64,000 bases of DNA, from the NCBI GenBank assembly GCA_964589445.1, contig CAZPQX010000001.1, positions 28,600 to 92,599 of the forward strand, written 5' to 3'. The notes beneath the pieces were generated by a model that saw only the letters and a program-made list of their open reading frames with translations, had not been told where the DNA came from and did not search any database. Positions 33,220-63,879 of the stretch are shown piece after piece (positions within the stretch are counted from its first letter, which is position 1; each line of letters opens with the position of its first letter). Origin of the DNA: an uncultured Candidatus Saccharibacteria bacterium. Its GTDB lineage: Bacteria > Patescibacteriota > Minisyncoccia > Phycocordibacterales > WO2-35-19. The position numbers and the translations under genes are program-made.

Positions 33220-33813
33220 ATGAGTAATTGGAAGCGAATTTCTTTGATAGTTTTTGTGTTAATTGGAGGCACAGCTACTTTTAGCTATTGGTCTATAAAC
33301 CAATTTAATTTGGCTTTTAATAGTCTAGATACTTCGTACCTCGCAAGCACACACGAAGCATACTCTTCTCTTAGAAGACAGGTTGATTTGGCTTCCACCT
33401 CTCCCCAAGCTTCACAAATTTCAGCTTCTTCTACTGATACTAATATCGAATTATCATTCTCTTTTCCTAAAAAAGGCTTCAACATATATAGCGGATGTAC
33501 TTACGAGATACCACTACAATCTTCCACTACTATAGCTTCAATAGAAGCTAGTCTGATAGACAGAGGTACAAAAGATTTGATTAATATTACAAAAAGCGGC
33601 TTACAAAAAAACATCGAGTTAGAAAATAGTTCACAAAATTTTAAATGGAAAGTTGGATCAGTTTGGCCAGGAGAATACTATATACAAACATCAAAAATAA
33701 ACGGCTCTGATATACAAACAAAGAGTGAGATATTCCTTATAAACAGAATGCCAGAAGACATAGACGTCCCCGCACAAAAAGAAATCTGCAAACAATCAAA
33801 CGGAGTTCTATAG
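33220..33813 (+). CDS. hypothetical membrane-anchored extracytoplasmic protein
   Basis: 197 aa; N-terminal TM 'ISLIVFVLIGGTATF'; no known motifs. Confidence 0.5.
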   Translation: MSNWKRISLIVFVLIGGTATFSYWSINQFNLAFNSLDTSYLASTHEAYSSLRRQVDLASTSPQASQISASSTDTNIELSFSFPKKGFNIYSGCTYEIPLQSSTTIASIEASLIDRGTKDLINITKSGLQKNIELENSSQNFKWKVGSVWPGEYYIQTSKINGSDIQTKSEIFLINRMPEDIDVPAQKEICKQSNGVL

Positions 33814-33831
33814 GGAGATTTTTATCTATTT

Positions 33832-35253: not shown

Positions 35254-35283
35254 CTTATGTTAATTTATGTGCAATATGTTTGA

Positions 35284-36330: not shown

Positions 36331-36343
36331 TTAATACCCAGCC

Positions 36344-36610
36344 ATGCCCCTAACACCATTTGTCGGACTTTCTACTTTTTTACATCTTTTTGTTATTTTA
36401 TGGAAGAAATTTATTGGTTGGAAACTTCCAGCCATGCATTATACAGGCAAGTTCAAATTAATATTTCAAGCGGGAATACTTCTAATGATGACCGTTATTT
36501 TTTCAGGAATAATGTTTGGGGCAATAAGTCTAATAGTTAAGAGTACAGAAGACAAACACTCCTCAATACAAATAGTCAAAAATTCTGCTCATTTTTTGAT
36601 AGATAAATAA
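36344..36610 (+). CDS. small membrane protein (88 aa)
   Basis: Two hydrophobic helices; directly follows the GT2 gene. Confidence 0.35.
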   Translation: MPLTPFVGLSTFLHLFVILWKKFIGWKLPAMHYTGKFKLIFQAGILLMMTVIFSGIMFGAISLIVKSTEDKHSSIQIVKNSAHFLIDK

Positions 36611-36721
36611 TTACACAATCTTTTTGTTTATAAGTAAAATATTTTAAATTTAATACAAACACTTGACTATTTATTATATTTTTGTTAATAAAACCTATAC
36701 TTTAATTCAAAATAACAACAT

Positions 36722-38764
36722 ATGAACAGATTCACAGCGGAGACAGTACTGCCAAAATTTACTGTAATTACAGCAATTATTACAATACTAGTATTTTCAC
36801 CCCTAAAATTACTAGCCTCTTCAAATCTAATCTTGAATTTTGATTTTGAGTCAAATTCTATTAATTCTACTAATCCCGACAATTGGTTTACTGGCACATA
36901 TGGTTCAGCGAGTACAACTTTTTATTACCCAGCATCGGGACCATTGGGAGATAGCGACAAATCAGCTAATATTACAGTATCAGACTACCTTGATGGAGAT
37001 GCTAAATGGATTTTCGAAAAAGTCCCCGTTAAAGCCGGCTATGAATACGAGTACTCTGATAGCTACAAGTCAGATATATCCACAAATTTAACAGCTGAAT
37101 ATTTTGATTCAGAAAACAATCATATTTCTTATGGTGGTTTTTTTAACCTTCCTTCAACCTTGGGAGAATGGCAGACAAGTAATGCCACCTTTACAGTTCC
37201 TGCTGGGGCTTCTTTTATGACTGTCTACCACCTAATATCTGGTAATGGTTCTCTAACAATCGATAATGTAAATTTATCAGAAACTTCTGTACCAGAAGCT
37301 TTTGATTATGGTTTTGTAAGCCTTACTTTTGACGATGGATGGGTTTCTCAATACAGTAATGCTTTTCTAGAAATGAAGAAAGATAATATACCAGGTACTT
37401 TTTTTGTTATAAGTACAGCAACAAAAAACTCCTCCCTAAATATTTTGAAAGATAATGTTACCACTGCAGATATGGTAGTTTCTAGTACCACAGATAGTAT
37501 TACTTGGTCTCCACTATACCTTGATCCAAGTATTCAAGAATATTTTTTCTCTGATCTATATACAGCGACAGCTACAAGCACAATATCTATAACCTACAAA
37601 ACAAGTAACCCTGAATTATCTCACACCATAACATCTCAAATTTTACCACCTGGTGAAAACTTAAACGGCTCTTTTTATTTTTCTTTACCCCCATCAATTG
37701 TAAATGGAGTAACAATTAAACACTCTGCAGAATCAGGAACTCTTGCTACCTCTAATGAATCAATGAATAGGTTGATTAACAGCTATATGAGCAAAGAACA
37801 ACTCCTTGATATACAGCGTAGTGGGAATGAAATTGCTGTTCACACCAAAGATCATTGCAACCTATCATTTATAACTGATACTGCACGATGTGCATTTATT
37901 CCCACAGGACCTCTAACACTGTCCCACCAAATAAATGATGCTCAGAGCGAATTGATTTCAAATGGGCTTAGTCCAGCCAATACAATAGCTTACCCGTATG
38001 GATCTTCTAATTCATCTGTGTATGATTTTATGAAATCTAATGAAATGTTTGTTGGTGGACGTGGTCTTAATATAGGTTATAACTATAAGAATTCAAAAAA
38101 GTTTGATCTAAAAGTCCAAATAATAGACGCCTCCACAACCCCAGACCTCATAGAAACATGGATACAATCATCAATCTTAAATAAGAGTTGGTTAATACTT
38201 GTATTTCATCAAATTGATAACCCTGTTAAGTTACAGAGTTTGGGTGAAAGTGGTGGTACTAGTCCAGATATATTCAAATCGCTTCTTGAGTATATTAAAA
38301 ATAACAATATACCTGTGAAAAGCATGTTAGATGGAGTGAATATAATGAATAACAATATTTCCACTACTACACCTCCAAATAACCCAGAAATAGAAAGTAC
38401 AAATCCCAACACTAGCAGTAATAATAATTACATTGGTAACACTGGTGGGAGTCGTAGAAGTTTAGTAATAATTACCAAACAAAATGAAAATGCCACATCT
38501 ACCGGAGAAGTTTTGGGAACAACAACTTACAAATTTATTCGCAATTTACGTGTAGGTTCAAGAGGTGAAGATGTAAAAGAATTACAAAATAGACTCACCC
38601 TAGACGGAGTATACTCAGGACCCATAACCGGATACTTTGGAATACTAACAAAGGGAGCTGTGATATCTTACCAAAATAAATACGGAATTAATCCTGTTGG
38701 TATAGTAGGACCAATAACTAGAAATCATCTTAATTTGTTTGCTTTAGTATATAAAGTAAAATAA
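36722..38764 (+). CDS. secreted polysaccharide deacetylase (NodB homology) with N-terminal carbohydrate-binding-like domain and C-terminal PG-binding domain
   Basis: 680 aa; 'GFVSLTFDDGWVS' NodB motif 1; CBM-like N-terminal beta-sandwich ('GSLTIDNVNLSE'); C-terminal PG_binding_1 'GSRGEDVKELQNRLTLDGVYSGPITGYFGILTKGAVISYQNKYGI'. Confidence 0.7.
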   Translation: MNRFTAETVLPKFTVITAIITILVFSPLKLLASSNLILNFDFESNSINSTNPDNWFTGTYGSASTTFYYPASGPLGDSDKSANITVSDYLDGDAKWIFEKVPVKAGYEYEYSDSYKSDISTNLTAEYFDSENNHISYGGFFNLPSTLGEWQTSNATFTVPAGASFMTVYHLISGNGSLTIDNVNLSETSVPEAFDYGFVSLTFDDGWVSQYSNAFLEMKKDNIPGTFFVISTATKNSSLNILKDNVTTADMVVSSTTDSITWSPLYLDPSIQEYFFSDLYTATATSTISITYKTSNPELSHTITSQILPPGENLNGSFYFSLPPSIVNGVTIKHSAESGTLATSNESMNRLINSYMSKEQLLDIQRSGNEIAVHTKDHCNLSFITDTARCAFIPTGPLTLSHQINDAQSELISNGLSPANTIAYPYGSSNSSVYDFMKSNEMFVGGRGLNIGYNYKNSKKFDLKVQIIDASTTPDLIETWIQSSILNKSWLILVFHQIDNPVKLQSLGESGGTSPDIFKSLLEYIKNNNIPVKSMLDGVNIMNNNISTTTPPNNPEIESTNPNTSSNNNYIGNTGGSRRSLVIITKQNENATSTGEVLGTTTYKFIRNLRVGSRGEDVKELQNRLTLDGVYSGPITGYFGILTKGAVISYQNKYGINPVGIVGPITRNHLNLFALVYKVK

Positions 38765-50016: not shown

Positions 50017-50105
50017 GGAGACGTGTCAGAGTGGTCTAATGTGCCTCTTTGCTAAAGAGGTGTGCCCTTTAAAAGGCACCGACGGTTCGAATCCGTCCGT
50101 CTCCG
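50017..50105 (+). tRNA. tRNA-Ser (anticodon GCT)
   Basis: Manual fold: acceptor GGAGACG/CGTCTCC, anticodon stem CCTCT/AGAGG with loop TTGCTAA, long variable arm 'gtgccctttaaaaggcac', T-arm GACGG-TTCGAAT-CCGTC, discriminator G. Confidence 0.9.
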
Positions 50106-50180
50106 CATTGACAACCTGTTAGTTTTGTTGACCCATATGCTCGATGCCGAGCTGTGACCCACAAAGCTACAGTTGTAAGA

Positions 50181-50215: not shown

Positions 50216-50806
50216 TCAACCTGCCTTCGGTAACGGAACTACTAGCTCAAAGCCATTAGCACTGGTGTTGTGCGGATCCTCAGCAAGACCAATACAGAAC
50301 GTATTAAGCGGACTTTCCGGTAGATCTATCGTACCCATCCCTTCCGTTGGTTGATATCCTCCTGCCGTAAACGGCAGACCGTTCTCCCCGAGGAAGGAAA
50401 AGATAATAACAACGCTGTTCGTGTTGGTCGGCGGCGTAAGCACAAGCGGGTTTGGCTTCGGCTGGTCGTTATCGAGTGTCTGCCAATCCTTTATGCGAAT
50501 CATAAAAAGCACGCCCGAGACAGGTAACGGCACTTTGTAAAATGCTCGTTCCGTCTTGCCGTTTACAATCTCTTTCACTTCGAGCAGGTTGTCTGGGAAC
50601 TTGTACGAGATGTCGAGGGTTGTCGGGTCGGTGCGCTTGATAGGAACAGGTAATGTAGTTGGCACATCCGTGCCTCTCGTCAGGTCGGCTATCTTGTTCT
50701 TGAAAGAGAGCTTGAGACAGCCGCGTCCCTGCGCGTCCTTGAAATACAGAAGCGATCCGAGGTATTTATTGCCTATCAGTAGATGTGACTTGATCTCGTT
50801 GCTCAT
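50216..50806 (-). CDS. hypothetical protein (196 aa)
   Basis: ORF with island-type composition; no motifs. Confidence 0.45.
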   Translation of the reverse strand: MSNEIKSHLLIGNKYLGSLLYFKDAQGRGCLKLSFKNKIADLTRGTDVPTTLPVPIKRTDPTTLDISYKFPDNLLEVKEIVNGKTERAFYKVPLPVSGVLFMIRIKDWQTLDNDQPKPNPLVLTPPTNTNSVVIIFSFLGENGLPFTAGGYQPTEGMGTIDLPESPLNTFCIGLAEDPHNTSANGFELVVPLPKAG

Positions 50807-51293
50807 ATTCGTTTATGCGCTGGGCTAGTTCAGCAGGATCAAAGCGACCTTTGTTTTCTATTCGGAGCAGTGGCACGCCCGCATCAGCTAAAATGCGCTC
50901 CACCTCTTTGTCTCGCTCCTGTCGGTCAGGTCGTTCATGACTTTTGTCGTCTAGCTCAATGGCGAGCTTGGGCGAAATGTACGCCTTGTCGCACAGCACG
51001 AAATCAACGGACTTGCGGTTGATGTGTGCGAGTGCCGCACGCCAGTCCTGTCCCTTCACTTTGTTATCAAGAATGGTCGGGAGATGCACCTGTGCGAAGA
51101 CGTAGTATTTGTCGCCAACAGCGGCAATGAGTGCACCATAGAATTCGTGCTCAGCACGAGTGAGGAAGAATTGCTTACGGGTGTAGCGATACTTTGGTTT
51201 CTCGCGTTCTTCGCCGCCTTCAACAACCGCCTTGAGAATAGCTAGAGCTATGAAGAGGACTATGACGATTCCTGCGAGGATATAAATATTCAT
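50766..51293 (-). CDS. DUF2726-like (restriction-endonuclease-fold) protein with N-terminal TM helix
   Basis: 175 aa; 'YYVFAQVHLPTIL...VDFVLCDK...IELDDKSH' fits the DUF2726/PD-(D/E)xK-like family often seen in defence islands. Confidence 0.5.
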   Translation of the reverse strand: MNIYILAGIVIVLFIALAILKAVVEGGEEREKPKYRYTRKQFFLTRAEHEFYGALIAAVGDKYYVFAQVHLPTILDNKVKGQDWRAALAHINRKSVDFVLCDKAYISPKLAIELDDKSHERPDRQERDKEVERILADAGVPLLRIENKGRFDPAELAQRINEYEQRDQVTSTDRQ

Positions 51294-51302: not shown

Positions 51303-52061
51303 TTAAGAGGACGCTGCTTCTTTAAAGCGGCTCACTTTGCCGTCGTGGATGTCTATCATGAAAGAAAGCAACATGTCGTAAACCAAAAGCCAGAGACCTC
51401 CATTCTTAGTTCCTCGTACGCGCGCTAACCACATGTTATGATTTGATATTTCATCCGCTTTGAAAGAATAGTCCTCCGAGAAAAAACCACCCTTTTCATT
51501 CTTCGCAATTTTATTAATGCAATCTTCTATCAGTTTTACGTATTCTGGGAATGGCTTCCAAAGTGCCATTTCATAAGCCGCCTTGACCATGTGAGAACCA
51601 TAGTTGCCGTTCTGTAGCTGTATGAGAAATTCATCATGCTCTGATTTGGTCTTGGCATACTTCGTAACCTCTACTTTCGTAAGATTCTCGAGGTATTCCG
51701 TTATGTATGGTTGGTTCCTCTCAACGAATTCTGAAACGGCCTTGTCGCTTACCTCCAGTAACTGAATTGAATTCAACAGGTTGATTAGCGCACTTACTCT
51801 AGAAAAAAGATTCTCCGATTTAAGCTCATTTATTTGTCGCTCAATGAGAGCCACAATCGCAGGCGGAATCTGATTGCCGTCTTGGCTCAGGATAAATTTG
51901 ACCTCACCTATAAGCTCTTCAATTTGCTTCCTTGAGTCGTGAATTATCTCAAGCTGTTCCTTTGAGGTCTTGGTTGCAAATTGATCAAAATATTGGACGG
52001 ATTTTATCTTGTTCATACACTTAATGTTATCAAAATTCGTTTCCTTTATCCAGAAAGGCAT
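51303..52061 (-). CDS. hypothetical protein (252 aa)
   Basis: ORF abutting the recombinase gene. Confidence 0.45.
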   Translation of the reverse strand: MPFWIKETNFDNIKCMNKIKSVQYFDQFATKTSKEQLEIIHDSRKQIEELIGEVKFILSQDGNQIPPAIVALIERQINELKSENLFSRVSALINLLNSIQLLEVSDKAVSEFVERNQPYITEYLENLTKVEVTKYAKTKSEHDEFLIQLQNGNYGSHMVKAAYEMALWKPFPEYVKLIEDCINKIAKNEKGGFFSEDYSFKADEISNHNMWLARVRGTKNGGLWLLVYDMLLSFMIDIHDGKVSRFKEAASS

Positions 52062-53413
52062 TATTCCTCTACCAGAGTAATCTTCTTGTCATTCAGCACC
52101 AGCCTCGACCGCAAGTGACCCATTAATTCGCGCTTCTCAAGCGGCGTTCCTTCGCGTAGCACATACTTGGCGTATTCGCGCGTGGCAATGTCATCCTCGT
52201 CGATCTGCATCTTCGGCTTGCCTTTGACCGCCAACCTTTGCAGTCGGTTGAATCGCTTGATTTCTTCCTCAAGTTTCATTCGCATACCAAGTTCATTCAT
52301 GTTCAGCCTATCGATGATCTTGAATAGCTCCTCGACTAATTCCTCCTCGCGTATGTATTTATTCTTGCAGTTACGATCCCTTGCCTTCGAGCAAGAGTAG
52401 TAGACGTACTTTGCGTTTGTTCCGTCCTTGAGCAGTTTGTATTTCTCCTGCGCCGTTATCCCTGACCCGCACATGCCACAGGTGAAGAGCTTTGTGAAGG
52501 CGAACTCTCGGTTCTCTCTGACTATCTTGTCTCGCTTCAGCTGTTCCTGCACCTTCCTGAACAGCTCCTCGGTTATCAGTGGCTCATGCGTGCCTTGATA
52601 CCACTGTCCTGAGTTTCGGGGATACTCAAATGGTCCATAGTAGATCGGCATCTGGAGCATTCGATACACTCCACTCAATGTTAGCGGCCTGTTGCCGCGA
52701 GTATGGAAGTTGAGGTCGAAGCGGAGCCAGTTGTATACCTTTCGTCCCGACCATTGTTCATACGCCACTTTCTCGAACATTTGCTTTACGATTGGCGCGC
52801 GTTGCGGATCGACGACGATCCTGCATTTCTTGTCCATGAGCTTTTGATTCAAGTATCCGAGCGGTGCCATGCCTGGCCACAATCCCATCTCCACTCTCGT
52901 TCGCAGTCCTCGCTTAACGTTGATACCTCGATTGTCGTTCTCCAATTTTGCTTGGCTTCCAAGGATCATCAGAAGAAACTTCTCGTTCGGGTTATTGCCG
53001 AACGTCTGTCCGAAAGTTCGGATCATGTGTAACTTTCCTGCATCCATCAAATCCACGATTCGTCCGAGATCTCCGGCATTTCTTGAGATGCGATCCGGTG
53101 CCCATGTGAGAATTCCGTTGTATTTGCCGTCCCTGACTTCTTCGACTATTTCATTGAACACTGGCCGTTGACCTGTCTCCTTAGCCGAGTGACTTTCTCG
53201 CTTCATGGTCACGATCTCCAGACCCTCCCGTTCCGCGAGCTGGAGCATCTCCTTGATCTGGCTGTCGATACTCAAGACTTGCCGTTCCTCAGACTCGCTA
53301 CTCTTTCTTGCGTAAAGGCAGTATTTCACCTTTACGGGGATTGCTTCTTGTTTGGCAGCCATCCCATGCGGCGCTTGTATTGTGTTATTCATACAACAAC
53401 ATTGATGACGCAA
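52061..53413 (-). CDS. large serine recombinase (integrase)
   Basis: 'LYARKSSESEERQVLSIDSQ' catalytic Ser motif; resolvase domain, recombinase domain and Cys-rich zinc ribbon 'CGMCGSGI...YYSCSKARDRNC'; true start probably an internal Met ('MAAKQE'). Confidence 0.85.
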   Translation of the reverse strand: MRHQCCCMNNTIQAPHGMAAKQEAIPVKVKYCLYARKSSESEERQVLSIDSQIKEMLQLAEREGLEIVTMKRESHSAKETGQRPVFNEIVEEVRDGKYNGILTWAPDRISRNAGDLGRIVDLMDAGKLHMIRTFGQTFGNNPNEKFLLMILGSQAKLENDNRGINVKRGLRTRVEMGLWPGMAPLGYLNQKLMDKKCRIVVDPQRAPIVKQMFEKVAYEQWSGRKVYNWLRFDLNFHTRGNRPLTLSGVYRMLQMPIYYGPFEYPRNSGQWYQGTHEPLITEELFRKVQEQLKRDKIVRENREFAFTKLFTCGMCGSGITAQEKYKLLKDGTNAKYVYYSCSKARDRNCKNKYIREEELVEELFKIIDRLNMNELGMRMKLEEEIKRFNRLQRLAVKGKPKMQIDEDDIATREYAKYVLREGTPLEKRELMGHLRSRLVLNDKKITLVEE

Positions 53414-53873: not shown

Positions 53874-54065
53874 ATGGCGAAACCGGATGACAAACTAAAG
53901 AAATTGCCGGATATACTGACGCTTAAGCAAGCCTCGGATGTTCTAAATGTTCATCCAAACACTTTGCGTAATTGGGACAAAAAAGGGGTTCTAAAAGCGA
54001 TAAGATATGGTGACCGTCGAGATCGCCGTTTTAAGAAGAGTGACCTCCTAAAGTTACTCAAATAA
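53874..54065 (+). CDS. excisionase/AlpA-family HTH DNA-binding protein
   Basis: 63 aa; 'LTLKQASDVLNVHPNTLRNWDKKGVL' helix-turn-helix typical of Xis/MerR-type small regulators. Confidence 0.6.
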   Translation: MAKPDDKLKKLPDILTLKQASDVLNVHPNTLRNWDKKGVLKAIRYGDRRDRRFKKSDLLKLLK

Positions 54066-54066: not shown

Positions 54067-57000
54067 ATGGCTCGCTTCACTCGTAAATTTGATGCAAAGG
54101 CATATTGGGCAACGAAGCCTTACTGCACAGTTTGCAAGAACCACAAAGTGAAGGAAGGAAATATATGCTATGAATGCAAACAAGCGGCAATGAAACAAAA
54201 ACGCGAACTCAATAAGAATAACGAGGTAGAGATAGAGTCTTTTGCCTCTGCTGATATTGAGACTCCAGAGCCGCGAAAGAAGCGCGTTTCTAATATTTCA
54301 GCTGAGGCACAAAACAAAGTCGTTCGACTGTTTACATATTTGGAGAAGGCCCTCGCTGTCGATGATTCCATTGTTCGAGATTTTCGTACCAATACAGCAG
54401 CACCTTCTCCATGGTGGCTGGCAGACTATCCTACAGACCTCGAGAACCTAAGTATCCGCCCTTTTGATACTGAGAAAACTCCTGAAGGCGTGCAATCTAC
54501 TTCATGGCTGAAGGTGGAGAAGAAGAACATCAAGGCGGCACCTGAACTGCCAAGCCAACTTGAAGAGTGGATCGATGAGGTTAACCCACTACAAGAGCCG
54601 GTCGCTAAAGAAAAGGTAGATCGAAAAGTCCGCTTTGCTGACGACAAAGATCGTGAGAAGGAATTCAAGAATTTCCGGAAGAATTTTGAGCAAGGAGATG
54701 AAATTCCTGAAATCCTAAAAGATTGGGTGACAATCTTGCCAAACCAGTTGCCAGAATCAATCAGTGTGAAATACGTTCCTGATAATTGGGCGGATCATCC
54801 TGAGCTTGCAAAGTTGCTCGATGGATATACCGAAAATGAATGGAAGCCATGGGCAGAGCAGGTGAAGAAAGTCTATAAAGCAAATCTTCTCTACGATCAG
54901 CTCTATGCGCTCCGATTGCTCCTGAAGAACGAAGGAGATAACTACGAGCTCCTGTTGGGTCATGGTGTTTTGACCTGGCAACATCAGGGAGTAGGCACGA
55001 TCTACACTCCAGTTTTCCTAAGCCCTCTTACGCTCGATTTTGATGCGTCAAAACGAACGATTGAAATCAACCCTGATCCGATGTTCAGGAATTTCGTCGA
55101 GACCTCATCGCTCTACGAGACTGACAATCCGGCTGAAATGGATCTCATCACTTGGGGAGATACCATCAATGCCAATCCGTTCGACTTCTGGCATCTTGAA
55201 ACCCTCAAAGGTCAAGCACAGACGCTAGTCAACTACATCTCACCGGACGGAGAAGATAATTTTACTGACGAAATCGTATCTGCTCCTACTGCATCAAAAA
55301 ATCCAAGTATCTGGAACGCTCCGGTGATCTTTGCTCGAAAGCGAACCAACGATATGTGGTCAAAGTACGCGGCTACGATTCGCAAGGATATCGAGCAGTA
55401 CGGAGTCGAAGCGACTGAATTCATCACTGACCTTGTTGGTGAATATGACGAAACTCCTGTAGGTGCGCGTGATGGATCTGATGGTGAACGCATGGAAAGC
55501 GGTAATGTATCTATTCCGGAATCAGAACTCTACTTCCCATTGCCTTGGAATGACGAGCAGAAGCGAATCGCAGAAAGACTCGATGCAAATTATGGTGTCG
55601 TAGTTAAAGGCCCGCCGGGTACTGGAAAGAGCCACACCATCGCAAACCTGATCTCTCGCTTCTTGGCACAGGGTAAGAGCGTCCTAGTTACTTCACAGAC
55701 GAGTAAGGCCTTAGAGGTGTTGCGTGAAAAGCTTCCTGAAAATATCAGGAGTCTTGCCGTGTCCCAGTTGCAACAGACTGCGAAGCGAGACGATGTGCTC
55801 CAGCAATCGATTGGAGAGATCAGCTCTAATCTCGGCGAGAGAGATACTAAATTTAGTGAAGCACGCGCAGAGAATGTCCGCAGGGATCTTAAGAAAGTCC
55901 GAGAAGAAAAGGCTACCCTCGCAGCAAAGATTCGGCAGTACATCCTTACTGACTCATCGGAGAATTTGGTTATCGATGGTGAAGAAATAAAGCCTATCGA
56001 TGCGGCAAAATTTGTCGATAAGAATAAAGACAACGAGGCTATCGCTTGGTTTACCGACAAGGTTCCATTTGATTCCGCCCCTAACTTTACAGAGGAAGAT
56101 TTGCAGGAAATTTATGACCTCGCCAAGGATGTGGAGGAGGTAGATCGATCTCTTCACAAAGAAGATTTACCTGATCACTCGATCCTCCCTAATGAGGACG
56201 TGGTATTGAGCGCATTCGCTGCGCATCGTGATCTCAGTGCTAAATCTAAGGCCTCTGACGAAGCGTTCAGCAAGGCGAAGATCGATCAAGAGACGCTTGG
56301 TCAGCTATGGGAACTCCTCAGCAGGGCGAAGAAAGTCTTGGGATCTATAAATCAGGATTACGAGCAGGAAATCTTCGACGCCTGTGCGATTAGCCAGAAT
56401 GAGCGTGATAAGTGGTCTTCTATCCTCTCAAAGATTTCAGAAAAGATTCAAATCGTGGCGAAGGGAAAGAACAATGCTATTGGACATGTCATTACCGGAC
56501 AATCCAATCTTTCAACTCACGACCTTCGCGAGGCAGTCGAAGCGTTGTATGCAAAAGCATCAAAGGGAAAACTTGGAACATTTGGCAAGATGCTTCTCCC
56601 TGGAAATGCAAAGCGCATTCTTGAAACCTACAAAGTGGATGGAGCGGGACCTGATAGTCCTGAGAGAGTAGAAATCTTGCGAAATTCGATACTTGTCGAA
56701 GCCGCAGAACGTGAGATCAAGACGCTCCTAGAGCAGGGACTTTCAGCTCTCAAGAACCCTCTCGAAATCGATCTGGATCGTCTTGATCTGGTCAAGCTCG
56801 AGGTATTCGTTGCAAGCATTCAAAGACTTGCAAACTATCATTCTGATTTCGCTGGAATCAATACCTGTTTCAATGAGGTGAAGGAACTCTCTGATCTGTC
56901 GTTCACTAAGAAGACCGACATTGAGACCGCTATCGAACTTACTGCATCGCGTGCAGCCGCATTTGAGCTTAAGAATCTCGAGAAATCATTTACAGAATGG

Positions 57001-58872
57001 GAAGAAACTATCCGATCGTCAGTAAACTTCCGCACTCAGCACGTCATTGTCGATGATCTGGCTCAAGCAATTGTGAAGCGCAACTCTACCGGTTGGAAGA
57101 GTTGCATTGAGGAACTCAATTTGCTCGTTGGAAAGAAGGAGAAAGCGACGAGGCTTAACGAACTATGTGAACAGATCAAAGAACAGGTACCAAATCTGTG
57201 CCGTGAAATCATCGAGCTAGCTGATCAGAAGCAGAAATTTGATTGTCCAGAGAATCTGCTGATCGCATGGAAAGTCGCACGGCTTGAGTCATGGCTCAAT
57301 CATATTCATGACCATGTTGATGTCGATACCTTGCAGAGTGAACTCGAGCGTTTAAACAAAAAGGAATTTGAACTCAATTCTGAACTCGTTACTGTGCTTG
57401 CGTGGCAGCGTCAGATCGACAAGGTTACCAAGCGTCAGCGCGATGCTTTGATGGCTTGGTCCGATGCAATGAAGAAGTATGGTAAAGGCACTGGAAAATA
57501 TGCGAACAAGTGGCTGAATGCCGCACAGCAATCTCTCAAGGAAGCAAAGAATGCAGTTCCTGTCTGGATCATGCCTCTTCACCGCGCAGCTCAAATGTTC
57601 TCAGACCCTACGGCGGGAATGTTCGATGTGGTGATCTTCGATGAGGCAAGTCAATGCGATATTCGTGGTCTCACTATCGGATATCTTGGTAAGAAATTGC
57701 TTGTCGTTGGAGACCCTGACCAGATCAGTCCGGCGGGCATATTCCAAGATCAGGAAAAGACCTTTGAACTTATTTCCCGATTCCTCTTCGATATTCCCCA
57801 TAAGGATAACTTCTCGATCACTTCGAGCCTCTTCGATCTGGCAAAGATTCGTATTCCAAACATGATCCAGCTGAATGAGCACTTTAGATGCGTTCCTGAG
57901 GTCATTGCGTTCAGCAACTACCACATCTACGATTCAAAGCTTAAACCGCTTCGACATCCGCACCCTAAAGGACTCCTGAAGCCTGCTCTTGCTCCTATAT
58001 TGGTCGAGGGAGGCTATCAGAACACCAATAATAAGGTGAACGAACCAGAAGCGAAAGCTGTCGTAGAGAAGCTTGTAGAACTTTTGGAGGATCCGAATTA
58101 CCAGAAGCGTCCTGACGGCCATCTTTGCAGTTTTGGAATTATTTCTCTGCTCGCAGAAGATCAGGCGAAATACATCAAGGATCTAATTTTGAAACACCCG
58201 AAGATCGGAGAGAAAGTGATCGAGGAAAGAAAGATTATTTGTGGTGACGCATACGCATTCCAAGGCGATGAACGCGATGTGATGCTTCTATCCATGGTAA
58301 GAGCCCTTGATCCAAACAAGCCAAATGACACTGTCGCACCTCTTACTGATAAGGGTGCAGCACAACGCTTCAATGTGGCTGCTACTCGCGCACGTGATCA
58401 GGTATTCCTTTTCCACTCAATTCCTTTGGAAGAATTCCGAAATCAGAATGATTGGCGATTCAAGCTACTTAATTGGTACTACGATCCAAAGAAAGAGGAA
58501 CTCAAAGCTGGCCGCGAGATACTTAAGAAAGAATTTGATTCAGGCAGAGCGTCAAACTTCTCATACGAAGTTGGAAATCTCATTATCGATAAAGGTTATC
58601 AGGTTCTGCCTGAATATCCCGTAATCGGCTATCGTATAGATCTTGTAGTTCAAGGTGCTGAAGCTCGTCTTGCAGTTGAATGTGACGGAGACCAGTATCA
58701 TACGCTCGAAAACTGGGAAGAAGATCAAGTCCGCGAGAGACAACTTCGCCGTGCTGGGTGGGAATTCTGGCGTGTGACCGGTAGCTCATTCTATCGCCAC
58801 AAGGAAAAAGCACTCGATAGCCTTTGGAAGAAGCTCGACGAGCTTGGTATCAAGCCGATGATTGATCGCTAG
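54067..58872 (+). CDS. 1601-aa SF1 helicase (AAA_11/AAA_12, Upf1-like) fused to a C-terminal DUF559/Vsr-like endonuclease; N-terminal Cys4 zinc finger
   Basis: Walker A 'GPPGTGKSHTIANLI', Walker B/motif II 'VVIFDEASQCD', motif VI 'VAATRARDQVFLFHS'; C-terminal 'RIDLVVQGAEARLAVECDGDQYH...RRAGWEFWRV' = DUF559; N-terminal 'CTVCKNHKVKEGNICYEC'. Confidence 0.8.
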   Translation: MARFTRKFDAKAYWATKPYCTVCKNHKVKEGNICYECKQAAMKQKRELNKNNEVEIESFASADIETPEPRKKRVSNISAEAQNKVVRLFTYLEKALAVDDSIVRDFRTNTAAPSPWWLADYPTDLENLSIRPFDTEKTPEGVQSTSWLKVEKKNIKAAPELPSQLEEWIDEVNPLQEPVAKEKVDRKVRFADDKDREKEFKNFRKNFEQGDEIPEILKDWVTILPNQLPESISVKYVPDNWADHPELAKLLDGYTENEWKPWAEQVKKVYKANLLYDQLYALRLLLKNEGDNYELLLGHGVLTWQHQGVGTIYTPVFLSPLTLDFDASKRTIEINPDPMFRNFVETSSLYETDNPAEMDLITWGDTINANPFDFWHLETLKGQAQTLVNYISPDGEDNFTDEIVSAPTASKNPSIWNAPVIFARKRTNDMWSKYAATIRKDIEQYGVEATEFITDLVGEYDETPVGARDGSDGERMESGNVSIPESELYFPLPWNDEQKRIAERLDANYGVVVKGPPGTGKSHTIANLISRFLAQGKSVLVTSQTSKALEVLREKLPENIRSLAVSQLQQTAKRDDVLQQSIGEISSNLGERDTKFSEARAENVRRDLKKVREEKATLAAKIRQYILTDSSENLVIDGEEIKPIDAAKFVDKNKDNEAIAWFTDKVPFDSAPNFTEEDLQEIYDLAKDVEEVDRSLHKEDLPDHSILPNEDVVLSAFAAHRDLSAKSKASDEAFSKAKIDQETLGQLWELLSRAKKVLGSINQDYEQEIFDACAISQNERDKWSSILSKISEKIQIVAKGKNNAIGHVITGQSNLSTHDLREAVEALYAKASKGKLGTFGKMLLPGNAKRILETYKVDGAGPDSPERVEILRNSILVEAAEREIKTLLEQGLSALKNPLEIDLDRLDLVKLEVFVASIQRLANYHSDFAGINTCFNEVKELSDLSFTKKTDIETAIELTASRAAAFELKNLEKSFTEWEETIRSSVNFRTQHVIVDDLAQAIVKRNSTGWKSCIEELNLLVGKKEKATRLNELCEQIKEQVPNLCREIIELADQKQKFDCPENLLIAWKVARLESWLNHIHDHVDVDTLQSELERLNKKEFELNSELVTVLAWQRQIDKVTKRQRDALMAWSDAMKKYGKGTGKYANKWLNAAQQSLKEAKNAVPVWIMPLHRAAQMFSDPTAGMFDVVIFDEASQCDIRGLTIGYLGKKLLVVGDPDQISPAGIFQDQEKTFELISRFLFDIPHKDNFSITSSLFDLAKIRIPNMIQLNEHFRCVPEVIAFSNYHIYDSKLKPLRHPHPKGLLKPALAPILVEGGYQNTNNKVNEPEAKAVVEKLVELLEDPNYQKRPDGHLCSFGIISLLAEDQAKYIKDLILKHPKIGEKVIEERKIICGDAYAFQGDERDVMLLSMVRALDPNKPNDTVAPLTDKGAAQRFNVAATRARDQVFLFHSIPLEEFRNQNDWRFKLLNWYYDPKKEELKAGREILKKEFDSGRASNFSYEVGNLIIDKGYQVLPEYPVIGYRIDLVVQGAEARLAVECDGDQYHTLENWEEDQVRERQLRRAGWEFWRVTGSSFYRHKEKALDSLWKKLDELGIKPMIDR

Positions 58873-59023
58873 GTCTTCGCGACACGTTTTCAAAAGTGAT
58901 AAAATAAATCTACAAAGTCCCAAGACCTAACCCTCGAAAGAGATATGGTCGCAAAACCGTCCAAGGCAGTTTCCTCGCACGAGGATTCGACCTTTTGTGT
59001 CGAGTCGGTGCGGGGATTTTGTT

Positions 59024-60073
59024 TTATCCACCTATCCAGAACCACAGGTTATTCTTGGTCTCCTCGCTCAACTTGTAGGCATCAGCATGCGACATTACAC
59101 CCATATATGAGCGAAGCGAAGATTGCAGGGTTTCCTCGCTAATATTCCCGTCCTTAAACATTGCCGCTTTCTCTCGGAGCTTACGGATCATTCTGCGCCT
59201 CGTTCGTGCTCTGAGAAGGATATGGTGTGGAAAGATAACGTAGCCTAAGAAATCCACTCCTTGGTTTGGCTTACGGACAATAACCTTTTCAGGGTGAAGG
59301 GATAGCTTGAGTTGTTCTTGCAGGAAATTCTCCATCTTGACAAGGATCGGTTCCAATTCTGATTCGTCATGGCTCAATACCACAAAATCATCGGTGTAAC
59401 GGACATAGCACGCGACTTTCAGTTCGCGCTTAACGAACTGGTCAAATTCATTCATGTATACATTCGCAAAAATCTGCGAAGTGAGATTGCCGATCGGAAC
59501 ACCTCTATGACTGAAAAGATCGGACTGACCGCTAGAGAAGCTTCCTACAATTTCTCTCAAAAGCTCCATCATCTCTGGATCTTTTATTTTCCTTTCAAGA
59601 ATAGACAGCAGGATTGTGTGGTCCACCGAATCAAAGAATTTTCTTACATCACATTTAAGCGCATAGCAGGGGCGCGTGTAATTCTTGCTTACTTTGCGGA
59701 TCATTGTATTGAGTGTCGCAACCCCCTTATGAGTTCCTTTGCCTACGCGACAAGAGAACGAGGTCGGTATAAAAGTAGGCTCAAAAATCGGATTCAATAC
59801 ATTGAAAACTGCATGGTGCAGAACTCTGTCTCGCACGCTTGCTTTATGTATATGTCGGCGCTTCGGATCATAGATATGAAAACCCATATACGGACGATGT
59901 TTGTAGGTCTTGTCCCTAATCTCTCGGTACAACTCGAAAACATTCTGCTCAAGATTTCTCTCGAACTCCAGAACGTCCTCCTTCTTTCCTTTGTCCCGCT
60001 TGAATTCGTCCCAAGCCGAAAACAAGTTTTCGGGACTGCACACATTATCAAATAATTTATTAAATGTTTTCAT
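59024..60073 (-). CDS. diversity-generating retroelement reverse transcriptase
   Basis: 349 aa; RT motifs, 'YVRYTDDFVV' (YxDD); DGR-specific motif-4 'GVPIGNLTSQIFANVYM' (SQ in place of the group-II QG). Confidence 0.85.
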   Translation of the reverse strand: MKTFNKLFDNVCSPENLFSAWDEFKRDKGKKEDVLEFERNLEQNVFELYREIRDKTYKHRPYMGFHIYDPKRRHIHKASVRDRVLHHAVFNVLNPIFEPTFIPTSFSCRVGKGTHKGVATLNTMIRKVSKNYTRPCYALKCDVRKFFDSVDHTILLSILERKIKDPEMMELLREIVGSFSSGQSDLFSHRGVPIGNLTSQIFANVYMNEFDQFVKRELKVACYVRYTDDFVVLSHDESELEPILVKMENFLQEQLKLSLHPEKVIVRKPNQGVDFLGYVIFPHHILLRARTRRRMIRKLREKAAMFKDGNISEETLQSSLRSYMGVMSHADAYKLSEETKNNLWFWIGG

Positions 60074-60426
60074 CTATGAATGACACTGACATCCCAATTC
60101 TTAAGAAATCGTATGAGCTTTATAAGATCTTTCACGAATACCGAAGAGTTATTCCGAAGACGGAACGCTTCACGGTATACGAGCGTAGCGAGAACGCCAT
60201 ACTCGACGTTATCGAATGCTTCTTTGAGGCAGGATACATGCGAAGCAATAACAAAGTTGCATTGCTGGAAAGAGCGAGCGTGAAGCTTAATCTTCTGCGC
60301 TTCTTCTTCCGTCTCATGAAGGAGAGCAAGACCTTCGACAACAAGAAATACGTTGCGCTTCAGACGGTCATCGACGAGATCGGCCGAATGCTGGGCGGAT
60401 GGATCCGTTCCAGCAGCGCGAGGTAA
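60064..60426 (+). CDS. avd: Avd-like accessory variability determinant (four-helix-bundle protein)
   Basis: ~117-120 aa; 'IPKTERFTVYER...FFEAGYMRSNNKVALLERASVKLNLLRFFFRLM...IDEIGRMLGGWIRS' matches the four-helix-bundle / 23S-IVS protein family used by DGRs; the likely start is the second ATG (~60076). Confidence 0.7.
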   Translation: MFSSMNDTDIPILKKSYELYKIFHEYRRVIPKTERFTVYERSENAILDVIECFFEAGYMRSNNKVALLERASVKLNLLRFFFRLMKESKTFDNKKYVALQTVIDEIGRMLGGWIRSSSAR

Positions 60427-60474
60427 CAAAAGAGCGTCCGCTGGGACGCTCTTTTGCCGATGAAGGAGTGACTT

Positions 60475-60602
60475 CGGAACGAACCCGGAAGCCGACCCGT
60501 AGTTGTCGTTGGCATTGTCGAACCAGTTCGTGTCGAACTTGACCTTGCCGTCGTTGAAGTTGAAGTACGGGGCGTTGTCGAAGCGGACATCGGAATCCGG
60601 AT
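60475..60602 (-). repeat. DGR template repeat (TR)
   Basis: 128-bp repeat with ~10 mismatches to VR at 61014-61141; every mismatch is at a T on the plus strand (= A in the minus-sense TR). Confidence 0.85.
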
Positions 60603-60906
60603 GTTTGCCTTTACCCGTCCGTGTCACCGAAGCTTGAAAGCGGTTCCTGTTGGAAACAAGACGCGATCTCGCTCCTGAATTTTATTCAGCAACACCCGCC
60701 GTATAGGCTTATTGGTTTGCATTGAATAAAAGCAAGCAGTATCTCCTTATCGCGGCACTCTCCTCCAAACCGTAATCGAGAGGACTCTGGCCGGTTTCTC
60801 TAAAGAGAAAGAGTTCGGCGACGGCAATCCGTAAACGGCCGTGCATTAGCCTAGACTCGCCGTTAATTGTATCAAAAATTGAGCGCTACGCGCATAAAAA
60901 GAAATC

Positions 60907-60936
60907 AGGGTTACCCACGCTGTGGATAACCCTGAA
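60907..60936. terminator. hairpin cagggtta-cccacgctgtgga-taaccctg ~70 bp 3' of VR (target-gene terminator and/or DGR-associated stem-loop)
   Basis: 8-bp stem, T-runs on both sides. Confidence 0.5.
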
Positions 60937-61004
60937 ATTTTTTGCCGCGAATTCAAGAATCAAAAGAAAGGATTCAAAAGACTCAAGAATTCGAGGATCG
61001 AGGA

Positions 61005-61898
61005 TCAGTTCTGCGGAACGAACCCGGAAGCCGACCCGTAGTAGTCGCTGGCATAGTCGAACCAGTACGTGCCGAACTTGACCTCGCCGTCGTGGAAGTT
61101 GAAGTACGGGGCGCGGCCGAAGCGGACATCGGAATCCGGATCGTCGTACTCGTCACCCGAGCAGTCGATCCAGAGGTCGTCATAGTTCATGAGCCGTTCC
61201 GGATGGGTCAGGATCATGATGCCGATGGCGAACGCGCCGAGGCCGAACTCGTTGGAGGCGAAAACCTCGCGAGCACGACGAACGGAACGTCCACGATGAC
61301 GGATGCCGAACTGCGCCGGAACGACGAGGATGTCGTGATCTTTCTGCTCGTCGCCGAGCTTCTGGAACACGCCTGCCGTCTTGGTTGTCTGCCGAAGACG
61401 CTCGGGACCGAGCTGGCCGTCGCGGTAGTTGTAGAACTTGCCGTTACGGGTCTGCTTGATCATGTCGAGCACCTTCTGCACCGCCTCGTTGTAGGTCGGG
61501 GCGATCTTCTCCCACTTCGGGATGGCGAACCATCCTTCGGCGTTCGGGGGAAGCGCACCTTCGGCCAGCTTCTCGTCGGCGTAGCCGATGCCGGGGAACA
61601 GCTCGCGCAGACGGTTGGTCTGTTCGGTGATGCCCTTCGGCTTGTAGCCGGAGAGGTACCCGTAGCTGGATTCGGTTTCCTCGTCCTTGAACTTGTCGGA
61701 GACCGACAGGTCCTTGAGCGAGGCGAGTGCCGCATTGCGGATTGCTTCGGCGAATTCGTCGCCGTGTTCGATGACGCGCTGTGCGCCAGGGTTGTCGAGA
61801 CCGAGCTCACCGAGAACCTTCTCGATGGCATCGGAGCCGAACCGGTTGATCTGCTTGATCTGACCGGCGGTTGCGTTTGTCTGAGTAATCGCGTTCAT
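61005..61898 (-). CDS. DGR target protein with C-terminal variable C-type-lectin-like region
   Basis: 298 aa from the GGAG-preceded start 'MNAITQTN'; C-terminus 'SDVRFGRAPYFNFHDGEVKFGTYWFDYASDYYGSASGFVPQN' is encoded by VR; markedly GC-rich. Confidence 0.75.
   Translation of the reverse strand: MNAITQTNATAGQIKQINRFGSDAIEKVLGELGLDNPGAQRVIEHGDEFAEAIRNAALASLKDLSVSDKFKDEETESSYGYLSGYKPKGITEQTNRLRELFPGIGYADEKLAEGALPPNAEGWFAIPKWEKIAPTYNEAVQKVLDMIKQTRNGKFYNYRDGQLGPERLRQTTKTAGVFQKLGDEQKDHDILVVPAQFGIRHRGRSVRRAREVFASNEFGLGAFAIGIMILTHPERLMNYDDLWIDCSGDEYDDPDSDVRFGRAPYFNFHDGEVKFGTYWFDYASDYYGSASGFVPQN
61014..61141 (-). repeat. DGR variable repeat (VR)
   Basis: See TR. The TR-encoded peptide is 'DSDVRFDNAPYFNFNDGKVKFDTNWFDNANDNYGSASGFVP'; the VR-encoded version has Asn (AAC) codons diversified to G/R/H/Y/S. 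Confidence 0.85.
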
Positions 61899-62397
61899 TT
61901 GCGTTATCTCCAATTTTTCTGAATTGCCGAAATCGCTCGGTGACGACTTGTCCCTGTATGAGACGAGTTTGCTGAGGCCTAAACTAAGCCACAAAAAGCT
62001 CGTCTCATGCATCGTTATGCAGTGATCCTTATCTCAAAGAGCAGTCTCCAGTATCATATCAAACAAATGACTGTTTGTCAATGATTTTGGCGATATGTCA
62101 AATGTCGGTAAAAGGGCTTCGCAACAGCCTTTTTCTAAGCTAAGCTACTGACTAATACCATCAATTTTGGTATTATGTTCTTGGTACAACTGAATATGAA
62201 TTGACCTAACCCCTCAGGGATTTCCCCGAGGATATGGTCGAAAATTCCGTCCAAAGTAAAGAACTCCTAATCAGAGCTACTTTGGACGGTCATATCTCGA
62301 AAGGGGTATGGGTATATCTCACGGGATATATCGGCCTGGTTAGGAGCTTTTTGCTACCTGACTAATTATTAGATTAGTTAAAAATCCGTCCAAAAAT

Positions 62398-63078
62398 ATG
62401 AATGATTCTTCACAGCCTTCAGCGAAGGCTACGCACCTTACCCTAGGTGGCATTATCGTCTGGCTCTTTAGTATCGGTTTTCTGTTCTCAGGGTTCATGT
62501 CCCTCTTTACCAACTTCGGCATGGGATTGATCATGATCCTCGCGGGTCTCTTGTTCCTCCCACCGCTGACAAAATACTTGAAAGAGAAGCACAACTTCTC
62601 GATCTCCGGTCCGCTCAAAATAGTGCTCCTATTCGGGATCATTATCATGGGCGGCTATTTTATTAGCCAAGATGATGACACGGCACCAGCAACCGTAACG
62701 GAGACTCGTCCTTCAGCCGCGTACGATGTTTCGTCTCTTGTCGGACTCAGCCTCACGGAGTTGAGAACCAAACTCGGCACTCCGTCATACGACACCGAAC
62801 CTACCGCACAGCAACTTGCTCTCGGTGGAATCGATACGTGGGAAAAGAGCTGGGATGTCGGTGAGTACAGCATCATGGCAACGTACGACATCAAGACAAA
62901 GGAAATCACTGACCTGTTCTTCGGCGCAGATAGCGACGCGGCCTTCAAGCGATTCGAGGATACCAACAATATCCTTGCCGCAGGAAACCTCTCAACAAGC
63001 GATCCTAAATACTCGGTCGAGTTCGTCAAAGCGAAGAATGGTCCCGGCTACACCGGAGCTATCATCCGCGCAAAGTAA
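62398..63078 (+). CDS. membrane protein with extracytoplasmic C-terminal domain
   Basis: 226 aa; 3 TM helices then 'SQDDDTAPATVTETRPSAAYDVSSLVG...' soluble domain. Confidence 0.5.
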   Translation: MNDSSQPSAKATHLTLGGIIVWLFSIGFLFSGFMSLFTNFGMGLIMILAGLLFLPPLTKYLKEKHNFSISGPLKIVLLFGIIIMGGYFISQDDDTAPATVTETRPSAAYDVSSLVGLSLTELRTKLGTPSYDTEPTAQQLALGGIDTWEKSWDVGEYSIMATYDIKTKEITDLFFGADSDAAFKRFEDTNNILAAGNLSTSDPKYSVEFVKAKNGPGYTGAIIRAK

Positions 63079-63081: not shown

Positions 63082-63879
63082 ATGAAATTCCAATTACCCG
63101 GCTTCGTCGATCGGTACTTCAAGAAACAAGAGGGTCTCAAGAAATACCAAGAATCAATTACTTCGTTTCTAGCAGACAGCGAGATTTCAGTCGAAGAGAA
63201 CGAAAAGCTTGTGGAGATGCAAAAGGAATTCGGCCTATTCGCCGAGGACGTGAAAGGTATTCACAAAACCTCGATTGCTTCCGTATTCACGAGTATCGGT
63301 TCTGACAAACGGATCACTGACGAGGAGAAAGTTTCTCTTGAAAAGTTGCTTACCCACTTCAACGTCTCGAAAGAAGACATCGCGTTCAATCAAGACAGCT
63401 TCAACAAGTATTATGCTCTTGCTCTCATTGATAAGGGAGTGCTGCCTACGATAAGTAACCCTGAGTCACAGGTGAATATTGTCTTCAAACCAGATGAGAT
63501 CCTGCACTGGGGCATGGTGGCAAACTTGATGAAGCGTAAGAAGATAACGACAAAAATAAATTACGGCGGACTCACCGCTTCGGTCAAGATTATGAAAGGG
63601 GTACGCTACCGCGTTGGCTCGATGAACATAGGTAGCGAATCCAAGGAAATAATAGATATGGAGGATTCCGGCATCTTCTACGTCACTAACCAACGTCTTG
63701 GCTATCTTGGATACCGCAAACAATTCTCGTTCCCATTCAAGAAGATTGGGTCACTAGAGCTTCGTCCAGATGGACTTCATATCTTCAAGGACGGCAAGGA
63801 AGCCCCGTATATTCTTCAGTTGAGCGATTACGAGTTAGCACTTGCGGTTATTTCATTCCTCTTAAATAAGGACGCATAA
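63082..63879 (+). CDS. hypothetical protein (265 aa)
   Basis: ORF immediately after the previous gene; no motifs. Confidence 0.45.
   Translation: MKFQLPGFVDRYFKKQEGLKKYQESITSFLADSEISVEENEKLVEMQKEFGLFAEDVKGIHKTSIASVFTSIGSDKRITDEEKVSLEKLLTHFNVSKEDIAFNQDSFNKYYALALIDKGVLPTISNPESQVNIVFKPDEILHWGMVANLMKRKKITTKINYGGLTASVKIMKGVRYRVGSMNIGSESKEIIDMEDSGIFYVTNQRLGYLGYRKQFSFPFKKIGSLELRPDGLHIFKDGKEAPYILQLSDYELALAVISFLLNKDA

Follow-up and report, generated by a model that had tools for sequence, protein, structure and literature searches.

A candidate defence-type helicase–Vsr nuclease carried on a mobile element of a Saccharibacteria genome

Helicase–nuclease fusions recur in prokaryotic immunity, where the sensing of infection is mostly obscure and usually falls to a variable N-terminus, and candidates for such a defensive role are numerous. 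For Hhe, T7 DNA-metabolism genes behave as triggers, and defence is abolished by mutation of a nuclease-site glutamate (10.1101/2022.06.16.496414). The nuclease family MTES_1575 was in turn defined as a Vsr-family restriction endonuclease, a DNA endonuclease type (Anantharaman et al. 2013, PMC3710099). Two further families that enter the comparison, ProA and PDC-S37, returned no describing paper in our literature search, and their biology is not used below. Here, we analyse a helicase–nuclease gene at positions 54067–58872 of a 64,000-nucleotide stretch of contig CAZPQX010000001.1 (hereafter the window), from an uncultured Candidatus Saccharibacteria bacterium of the Candidate Phyla Radiation (CPR), together with the island in which it sits and the loci of its relatives.

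Our best reading of the sequence comparisons is that the gene belongs to a large family, as yet without a name, that is sister to Hhe, ProA and PDC-S37, and we put at about 60% the probability that it is a self-contained, mobile-element-borne helicase–nuclease of defence (anti-phage or anti-foreign-DNA) type. What is known here is the helicase–Vsr-nuclease chassis; what is new is its combination with a distinct and structurally unmatched N-terminal domain.

An intact helicase–nuclease and its closest profile matches

The open reading frame (ORF) starts with ATG on the + strand and runs intact for 1601 aa with zero internal stops, and a 4.8-kb frame with 215 close homologues at 63–100% identity excludes a chance ORF, so that the single-gene superfamily 1 (SF1) helicase plus nuclease read by the original prediction stands. 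The order proposed there (Zn-finger, large uncharacterised region, AAA_11/AAA_12 helicase, nuclease) likewise agrees with Pfam and with an alignment of 13 close-clade members (A1), which was used for the calls of invariance. The parts of the gene are as follows.

54067–58872 (+): helicase–nuclease, whole gene, 1601 aa
54118–54177 (+), aa 18–37: 4-Cys zinc ribbon (CxxC...CxxC), specific to the CPR clade; C20/C23/C34/C37 invariant in A1
54301–55446 (+), aa 79–460 (~380 aa): N-terminal alpha/beta domain, family-specific; proposed sensor/regulatory part
55537–55776 (+), aa 491–570: N-terminal part of RecA1; Pfam AAA_11/AAA_30/AAA_19, with Walker A GPPGTGKS at 515–522 and motif Ia
55777–57561 (+), aa 571–1165: all-helical insertion of ~600 aa; ~20 helices in the AlphaFold2 model
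57562–58431 (+), aa 1166–1455: C-terminal part of RecA1 plus RecA2; Pfam AAA_12, invariant columns
58558–58836 (+), aa 1498–1590: Vsr-type PD-(D/E)xK nuclease; D1525, E1538, D1540

The helicase core is of the Upf1-like SF1B class, with Walker A, motifs II, III, V and VI and the RecA1/RecA2 fold all present (DEASQ at 1192–1196, VGDPDQ at 1214–1219, FQGDERD at 1398–1404 and NVAATRAR at 1436–1443; Pfam extents 495–715 for AAA_11 and 1254–1448 for AAA_12), and identity within the close clade is 94% across the N-terminal part of RecA1. Structurally, the protein was modelled with AlphaFold2 in two halves (residues 1–490 and 480–1601) from a 64-sequence alignment. The second half (predicted local distance difference test, pLDDT, 87.4) comprises RecA1, the all-helical insertion at ~571–1165, RecA2 and the nuclease. 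Foldseek places its helicase core beside Upf1-like SF1B helicases in a range of 1e-12 to 1e-9, with senataxin (SETX) at 1.2e-12 and UPF1 at 7.7e-11 and further matches to Sen1, IGHMBP2, Aquarius, Dna2 and ZNFX1, while phmmer matches the core to Sen1 at 1.3e-8. The insertion separates helicase motifs Ia and II, within RecA1 and at what we take to be the place where Upf1-type helicases carry their 1B/1C accessory domains, and it has no match among PDB sequences at E <= 1. The first half (pLDDT 87.6) consists of the zinc ribbon (pLDDT > 90), a disordered linker (57–71) and the alpha/beta domain (79–457), in which a long helix (245–289) is followed by a beta-meander; for residues ~79–460, a Pfam search gave no match and a search for solved structural relatives found none.

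The C-terminal nuclease is Pfam MTES_1575 (PF18741; 94.3 bits against a gathering threshold of 38.2), a match shared by 28 of 29 diverse relatives. Of the DUF559/Vsr-like endonuclease first proposed, the Vsr-like part thus holds, while DUF559 scores just under its cut-off (20.0 versus 20.6 bits). The nuclease core also aligns with the IDL...(I/V)ECDG motif of annotated Hhe; the published Hhe mutation is E1731A and the motif glutamate of the Klebsiella orthologue is at 1727, a likely but not exact correspondence. Invariant in A1 are the four cysteines, GPPGTGKS, DEASQ, VGDPDQ, FQGDERD, NVAATRAR, D1525, E1538 and D1540, and since the catalytic motifs are all invariant, the protein is predicted to be active both as an ATPase and as a nuclease.

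In defence-oriented profile libraries, the best NCBIfam match is ProA (NF058533; 246.7 bits, 4.1e-73, cut-off 1500; profile positions 632–1706 of 1903), and the best PADLOC match is PDC-S37 (PDLC05009; 210 bits, 1.4e-62), in which protein residues 498–1592 align with profile positions 298–1340 of 1550, a coverage of only ~67% for the profile and 68% for the protein. Both profiles give one unbroken alignment that begins where the helicase begins, crosses the insertion and reaches the nuclease. The NCBIfam Hhe model (NF042953) gives 127.7 bits (3e-37) against a cut-off of 2000 and covers residues ~1151–1594 only; PADLOC also reports Hhe (PDLC02194) at 4.3e-34, MkoC at 5.8e-32 and MkoA at 6.3e-24. 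The N-terminal ~480 residues are matched by none of the Hhe, ProA and PDC-S37 models, and six diverse relatives follow the same pattern (Hhe 117–159 bits, ProA 172–265 bits, PDC-S37 likewise).

Genuine Hhe/DUF4011 proteins all carry PF13195, whereas this domain, for which the original prediction suggested scanning the N-terminal third, is absent by Pfam from the window protein (E <= 0.1) and from all 29 relatives that share its N-domain (0/29, E <= 0.01). DUF3320 has no Pfam match in the window protein, which ends 11 residues past the nuclease domain, and was found in one of the 29. BLASTP against an annotated Hhe, the 1911-aa Klebsiella plasmid gene L089 (handles of this form denote loci in our comparison), aligned residues 1154–1593 at 26.6% (~440 aa) plus the Walker A region, and nothing more. 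By this C-terminal confinement, the shortfall in score and the missing DUF4011 and DUF3320, Hhe membership was ruled out; what survives of the Hhe-type architecture originally proposed is its order, helicase and then Vsr-type nuclease. In local hhalign comparisons over 56–79 columns, the N-domain matched DUF4011 with a probability of 30% (4-sequence profile) or 10.8% (121-sequence profile), with a recurrent motif, 'ELLLGHGVLTW...IYTPVFLSPLTLDFD' against 'LYLALGFLEW...APLFTIPV', which we treat as a lead and not as evidence of homology.

The island and the relatives of the gene

That the gene lies on acquired DNA was borne out: GC content steps from 0.386 to 0.469 at a tRNA-Ser gene, a serine recombinase is present, the related elements are mosaic, and nucleotide homology to the element of the closest relative, L001, starts at 50102, inside that tRNA gene. 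From tRNA-Ser onwards the order is an unknown 196-aa ORF, a DUF2726 protein, an unknown 252-aa ORF, the serine recombinase, an unknown 110-aa ORF, a helix-turn-helix (HTH) gene, the helicase and a diversity-generating retroelement (DGR) with its template repeat (TR) and variable repeat (VR).

50017–50106 (+): tRNA-Ser(GCT), which bounds the acquired element on the left (ARAGORN, GC step)
50766–51293 (−): DUF2726 protein (Pfam)
52061–53413 (−): large serine recombinase (Resolvase + Recombinase + Zn_ribbon_recom; Pfam), integrase of the element, transcribed away from the helicase operon
53874–54065 (+): 63-aa HTH_17/MerR-type (excisionase-family) protein (Pfam HTH_17, 41.8 bits)
58993–59015 (+): terminator-like hairpin with T-run (consensus scan), 120 nt past the helicase stop
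59024–60073 (−): DGR reverse transcriptase (Pfam RVT_1)
60472–60602: DGR TR, a 131-nt repeat with 92% identity to the VR
61011–61141: DGR VR, at the 3′ end of the target ORF 61005–62012 (−), 335 aa

With an integrase, a tRNA-adjacent insertion, a compositional break and variable presence, the island is an integrative mobile element with cargo, and not a demonstrated defence island or prophage. A prophage found no support, as PHROGs gave no structural or lysis genes and the phage and viral collections did not contain the family (four weak partial matches only in INPHARED; no relative found in an IMG/VR scan). The window recombinase is 97% identical to the second recombinase in L001 and 74% to the one beside the 90%-identical helicase of that locus, which indicates that these elements are mosaic. 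In L001 itself, two serine recombinases (2536–3879 and 15800–17152) within one 19-kb stretch bracket the helicase along with ParB-methyltransferase, MazG-like and nucleoside deoxyribosyltransferase genes, an arrangement that may represent tandem or nested elements and a route to the mosaic seen in the window, whose longer contig (L084) also goes on with ParB-methyltransferase genes.

The stop codon of the 63-aa HTH gene ends 1 nt before the helicase ATG. Its product also matches NCBIfam TIGR01764 'excise' (33.8 versus 28.8 bits) and PADLOC mad1 (6e-10), and it is probably a regulator (repressor) of the operon; alternatively, it could be the recombination directionality factor of the serine recombinase. 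A scan upstream of this gene detected no inverted repeats and fewer sigma-70-like matches than in shuffled sequence, a comparison to be read knowing that CPR promoters may differ. The terminator-like hairpin is weakly suggestive of an operon end, with such sites in the region no commoner than in shuffles.

Across the 18 distinct close-clade loci compared, flanks differ in every locus examined. Ten of these 18 have a serine recombinase no more than 8 kb from the helicase, and the helicase sits at the recombinase- or tRNA-proximal edge of the close-clade elements. Related elements abut tRNA-Gln, tRNA-Met, tRNA-Arg and tRNA-Glu, making five tRNAs with the tRNA-Ser of the window, and in L086 the 3′ end of the tRNA and the recombinase ORF overlap.

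L087 312–385; L095 5934–6005; L086 5726–5798; L096 14584–14656: tRNA genes beside related elements

Insertion next to tRNA genes usually goes with tyrosine integrases, and the tRNA-adjacent serine-recombinase elements of CPR bacteria may merit a study of their own. Three close-clade loci have no recombinase (L003, L088, L097), and among ~70 distant relatives, which keep no neighbour in common, only three lie near one.

On the upstream side, a small HTH gene directly precedes the helicase in seven loci. It is of the HTH_17 type in the window and of the XRE type in relatives (L001, L004, L005, L086, L087, L088 and L047), where it resembles XRE/HipB/HigA antitoxins and RstR-type repressors. On the downstream side, a DUF2779 protein of ~500 aa follows on the same strand, with a gap of −43 to +36 nt, in 10 of the 18 close-clade loci, and in L047 it follows a helicase of 29% identity.

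L005, L008, L009, L014, L047, L085, L087, L088, L095, L096, L097: DUF2779 gene downstream of the helicase

DUF2779 joins a Cas4-like nuclease to a second exonuclease region (PMC13621843), and the pairing points to a two-gene system, with only the first gene present in the window. DUF2130 stands downstream in place of DUF2779 in two loci (L003 14897–16171; L086 13130–14383) and so is an alternative partner in the same slot. Other neighbours of the relatives include genes of conflict type: Mrr_cat, AbiEii, Fic, AlbA_2/HATPase_c_4, NmeDI_C, DUF5677 and TerB_N. The AlbA_2/HATPase_c_4 'putative DNA-binding' proteins lie downstream in L091 (11058–12557) and L007 (14938–16497), and one family member carries this module fused; in L091, a Fusobacteria plasmid, a PC4/YdbC single-stranded-DNA-binding protein (3708–3935) is encoded 15 nt upstream of the helicase.

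In terms of distribution, metagenomes hold the exact protein and the 215 close homologues at full length (63–100% identity), those with names being from Woesebacteria, Levybacteria and Spechtbacterales. Species-representative genomes hold 566 loci with relatives, of which the best 80 are full-length. Within these best 80, relatives at 55–88% identity come from Saccharibacteria, Paceibacterota, Omnitrophota and one 'Bacilli' metagenome-assembled genome, and those at 28–41%, which match over residues ~80–1598, from Bacillus, Paenibacillus, Actinomadura, Nitrospira, Planctomycetota, Pseudomonadota and a Thermoplasmatota archaeon. Plasmid-borne relatives at 35–41% are annotated merely as 'AAA domain-containing protein'. 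The host of the window, to judge by an FtsZ 74–79% identical to named proteins, is a Patescibacteria/Paceibacterota bacterium near Zambryskibacteria. The close clade (55–91%) is present across several CPR lineages, and between Paceibacterota, Saccharibacteria, Woesebacteria/Levybacteria and Omnitrophota its members keep 64–70% identity along 1600 aa, which indicates horizontal transfer. An exhaustive search with residues 1–490 retrieved 762 representative clusters (50% identity). Within this N-terminal part, the core at 240–450 is the most widespread, residues 80–240 extend to the nearer subfamilies only, and the zinc ribbon is confined to the nearest clade (occupancy 7% in the broad family).

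The two neighbours named by the original prediction, the DUF2726 protein and the DGR, are both real, the latter genuine and complete, with all TR/VR mismatches (10/10) at TR adenines. The defence island inferred from them was not substantiated: PADLOC found no established system among the neighbours, and a DGR is not a defence system. Nucleotide homology to L001 covers the helicase (54081–58862) and resumes at 62135–62406, leaving the DGR cassette (58873–62134) as a ~3.3-kb insertion relative to that otherwise collinear element. Since the DGR is missing from L001, its adjacency to the helicase is incidental, and a functional link between the two was ruled out; DGR cassettes would seem to be mobile as whole units in these CPR elements. 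A link to the DUF2726 protein was also rejected, as DUF2726 is not kept beside the helicase in any relative. This protein has no PADLOC match, and because it weakly matches MTES_1575 (1e-4) and DUF559 (6e-4), it is another Vsr/PD-(D/E)xK-like nuclease in the element. The listed 185-aa ORF at 60070–60627 contains the TR and may not be a real Avd gene. Farther right, a 265-aa ORF (63082–63879, +) with a partial PDC-S48 match (7.4e-11; profile positions 224–312 of 411) is the sole other defence-candidate signal in the island.

Elsewhere in the window, three paralogous ORFs in tandem (945, 808 and 882 aa; 23680–31599, −) have near-identical N-termini (MSLRAVEHIFNGATTPIASYDSTKTNLGTL...) and adjoin a 1575-aa ORF (18044–22771, −), inside which a block at 20–22 kb has a strong GC skew of +0.28; the CPR host may display these products as variable surface proteins. 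Positions 32001–38000 have a GC content of 0.32–0.34, against 0.38–0.46 on the flanks, with glycosyltransferase-like and membrane or secreted-looking ORFs, and may mark a second stretch of acquired DNA with no bearing on the helicase.

A proposed defence function weighed against the alternatives

Several lines of evidence lead us to the defence-type reading: the best matches in two defence-oriented libraries are anti-phage families; the catalytic motifs are intact and the nuclease core aligns with that of Hhe; the gene travels on acquired DNA, in mosaic elements, with conflict-type neighbours in relatives; the close clade has spread horizontally, and its distant relatives keep no neighbours in common; and the upstream regulator is exchanged (HTH_17, XRE, others) next to a constant helicase, a pattern typical of toxic defence genes under regulation. 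Mechanistically, we infer the nucleic-acid substrate, polarity, trigger, regulatory role of the HTH protein and anti-phage phenotype along the following lines. The 63-aa HTH protein, probably co-transcribed, would keep expression of the operon in check. The N-domain (aa 79–460) and the ~600-aa helical insertion, likeliest to be the sensing and autoinhibitory parts, would form a module that responds to an aberrant nucleic-acid structure or a phage replication or recombination intermediate. Once triggered, the Upf1-like SF1B motor would hydrolyse ATP and translocate 5′→3′ on single-stranded nucleic acid, delivering or licensing the Vsr-type nuclease (D1525/E1538/D1540), which by homology with Vsr-type nucleases and Hhe should cut DNA, and this cutting would abort replication, either the invader's or that of the infected cell.

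Several results weigh against the defence-type reading. No family member scored reaches the curated threshold of any validated system. PADLOC, run on 10 neighbours, recovered no established system (only a mad1-like HTH, generic reverse transcriptase matches and the partial PDC-S48-like hit), so that the argument from neighbourhood is weak in the window. RNA is often the substrate of Upf1-like helicases, which leaves the one acted on here uncertain. Neither DUF2779 nor DUF2130 was found in the window or its longer contig, and the window copy, without DUF2779, may be an incomplete system. The close association with serine recombinases may instead mean that the protein plays a part in the biology of the element, and L003 and L088 lie among housekeeping genes, different ones at each locus.

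A fuller version of the defence-type reading, which we hold tentatively and at short of even odds, would make this a distinct, unnamed defence family with a novel N-terminal sensor lacking a solved relative and a greatly expanded SF1B helical insertion, its CPR form being a cassette of HTH protein, helicase–Vsr nuclease and DUF2779 spread by tRNA-targeting serine-recombinase elements. If true, the three-gene cassette would be among the first defence modules circulating specifically in tiny CPR genomes.

Of the alternatives, the one that survives best, though we consider it unlikely, is that the protein serves the element itself, either as a replication or processing helicase–nuclease or as an addiction or exclusion toxin with the HTH protein as its antitoxin-like repressor. 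The recombinase beside the helicase in 10 of 18 close-clade loci, the position at the element edge, and the upstream HTH proteins, antitoxin- or RstR-like in relatives and excisionase-family in the window, would all fit such a role, as would the module being kept even round the 29%-identical helicase of L047. The clade also occurs without a recombinase, however, and distant relatives are seldom near one; replication and relaxase proteins offer no architectural precedent, and the nearest profile matches are all anti-phage families.

An action on RNA, like that of Upf1, Sen1 and MkoA/MkoC, in which phage transcripts or R-loops, for instance, would be sensed or unwound and the nuclease would cut DNA in R-loops or be secondary, is in our judgement quite improbable. 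The closest solved helicases (senataxin, UPF1, Sen1, IGHMBP2) are indeed RNA or RNA/DNA enzymes, and PADLOC recovers MkoC and MkoA at the values given above, but Vsr-type/MTES_1575 proteins are DNA endonucleases (PMC3710099), Dna2 of the same helicase family acts on single-stranded DNA, and Pfam detected no RNA-binding domain in the helicase–nuclease.

We give very little credence to a housekeeping helicase–nuclease of DNA repair or recombination, an analogue of Dna2, AddAB or RecD in genome-reduced CPR bacteria. Its core is structurally like that of SF1B enzymes such as Dna2, the sequence is very highly conserved and some members sit among housekeeping genes; against this, no RecD- or Dna2-type orthologue with conserved synteny emerged, as NCBIfam scores fall far below their cut-offs (recD 30.7 versus 310, RecD2 18.2 versus 500, IGHMBP2 65.8 versus 349 bits), contexts vary with flanks that differ at every locus, the gene lies in a GC-distinct tRNA island with a recombinase, and the distribution is patchy, with 64–70% identity between CPR classes. 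Finally, a bona fide Hhe, that is, a DUF4011–helicase–Vsr single-gene anti-phage protein, is barely credible, since the shared C-terminal order, the matches to both Hhe models (4.3e-34, 3e-37) and the short N-domain motif (LLGHGVLTW...PVFLSPLTL) aligning with the Hhe DUF4011 region are set against 127.7 of 2000 bits, no DUF4011 or DUF3320, a BLASTP match of 440 C-terminal residues plus Walker A, an hhalign probability of 11–30%, and the closer ProA and PDC-S37 profiles, which share the long insertion.

Comparison with described systems

The family keeps an Hhe/ProA-like chassis and swaps in an N-domain that models confidently without a solved likeness. It escapes current curated defence models, and annotators probably miss it or half-match it, abundant as it is (full-length in at least 80 species genomes, with the 762 N-domain clusters). 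Its unusually well-conserved CPR clade on tRNA-flanked elements offers a handle on the poorly charted mobile elements and immunity of Patescibacteria. Validation would add one more named system along with a new sensor fold; failing that, the family would mark the limits of architecture-based defence prediction.

Like Hhe, which is often plasmid- or island-borne, the window protein joins an SF1 helicase and then a Vsr-type PD-(D/E)xK nuclease in one polypeptide; unlike it, the protein has its own N-domain and zinc ribbon, where Hhe (~1800–1900 aa) begins with DUF4011 and is extended at its C-terminus by DUF3320. With ProA, it has in common the insertion-bearing helicase–nuclease chassis (window residues 476–1593), whereas the first ~630 and last ~200 positions of the ProA profile are unmatched, so that the N-terminal module differs, and the score is ~1/6 of the cut-off. 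PDC-S37, an unvalidated candidate, is alike from the helicase through the long insertion to the nuclease and differs in its N-terminal 297 and C-terminal ~210 profile positions, which are unmatched. Mokosh MkoA/MkoC share the Upf1-like SF1 helicase core, to which their matches are confined; Mokosh effectors use a PLD-type nuclease, and the window nuclease is Vsr-type. Senataxin/Sen1, UPF1, IGHMBP2 and Dna2 share the RecA1/RecA2 fold and motifs and an accessory insertion at the same place in RecA1, but these Upf1-like SF1B enzymes are only 16–21% identical, the ~600-aa all-helical insertion sets the window protein apart, and the N-domain and Vsr nuclease are not theirs. Lastly, proteins of the MTES_1575 type likewise fuse a Vsr-family restriction endonuclease to an SF1 helicase in the context of conflict systems (PMC3710099), with a prototype that adds a transglutaminase, HEPN and two winged HTH domains (DUF3320), none of which Pfam detected in the window protein.

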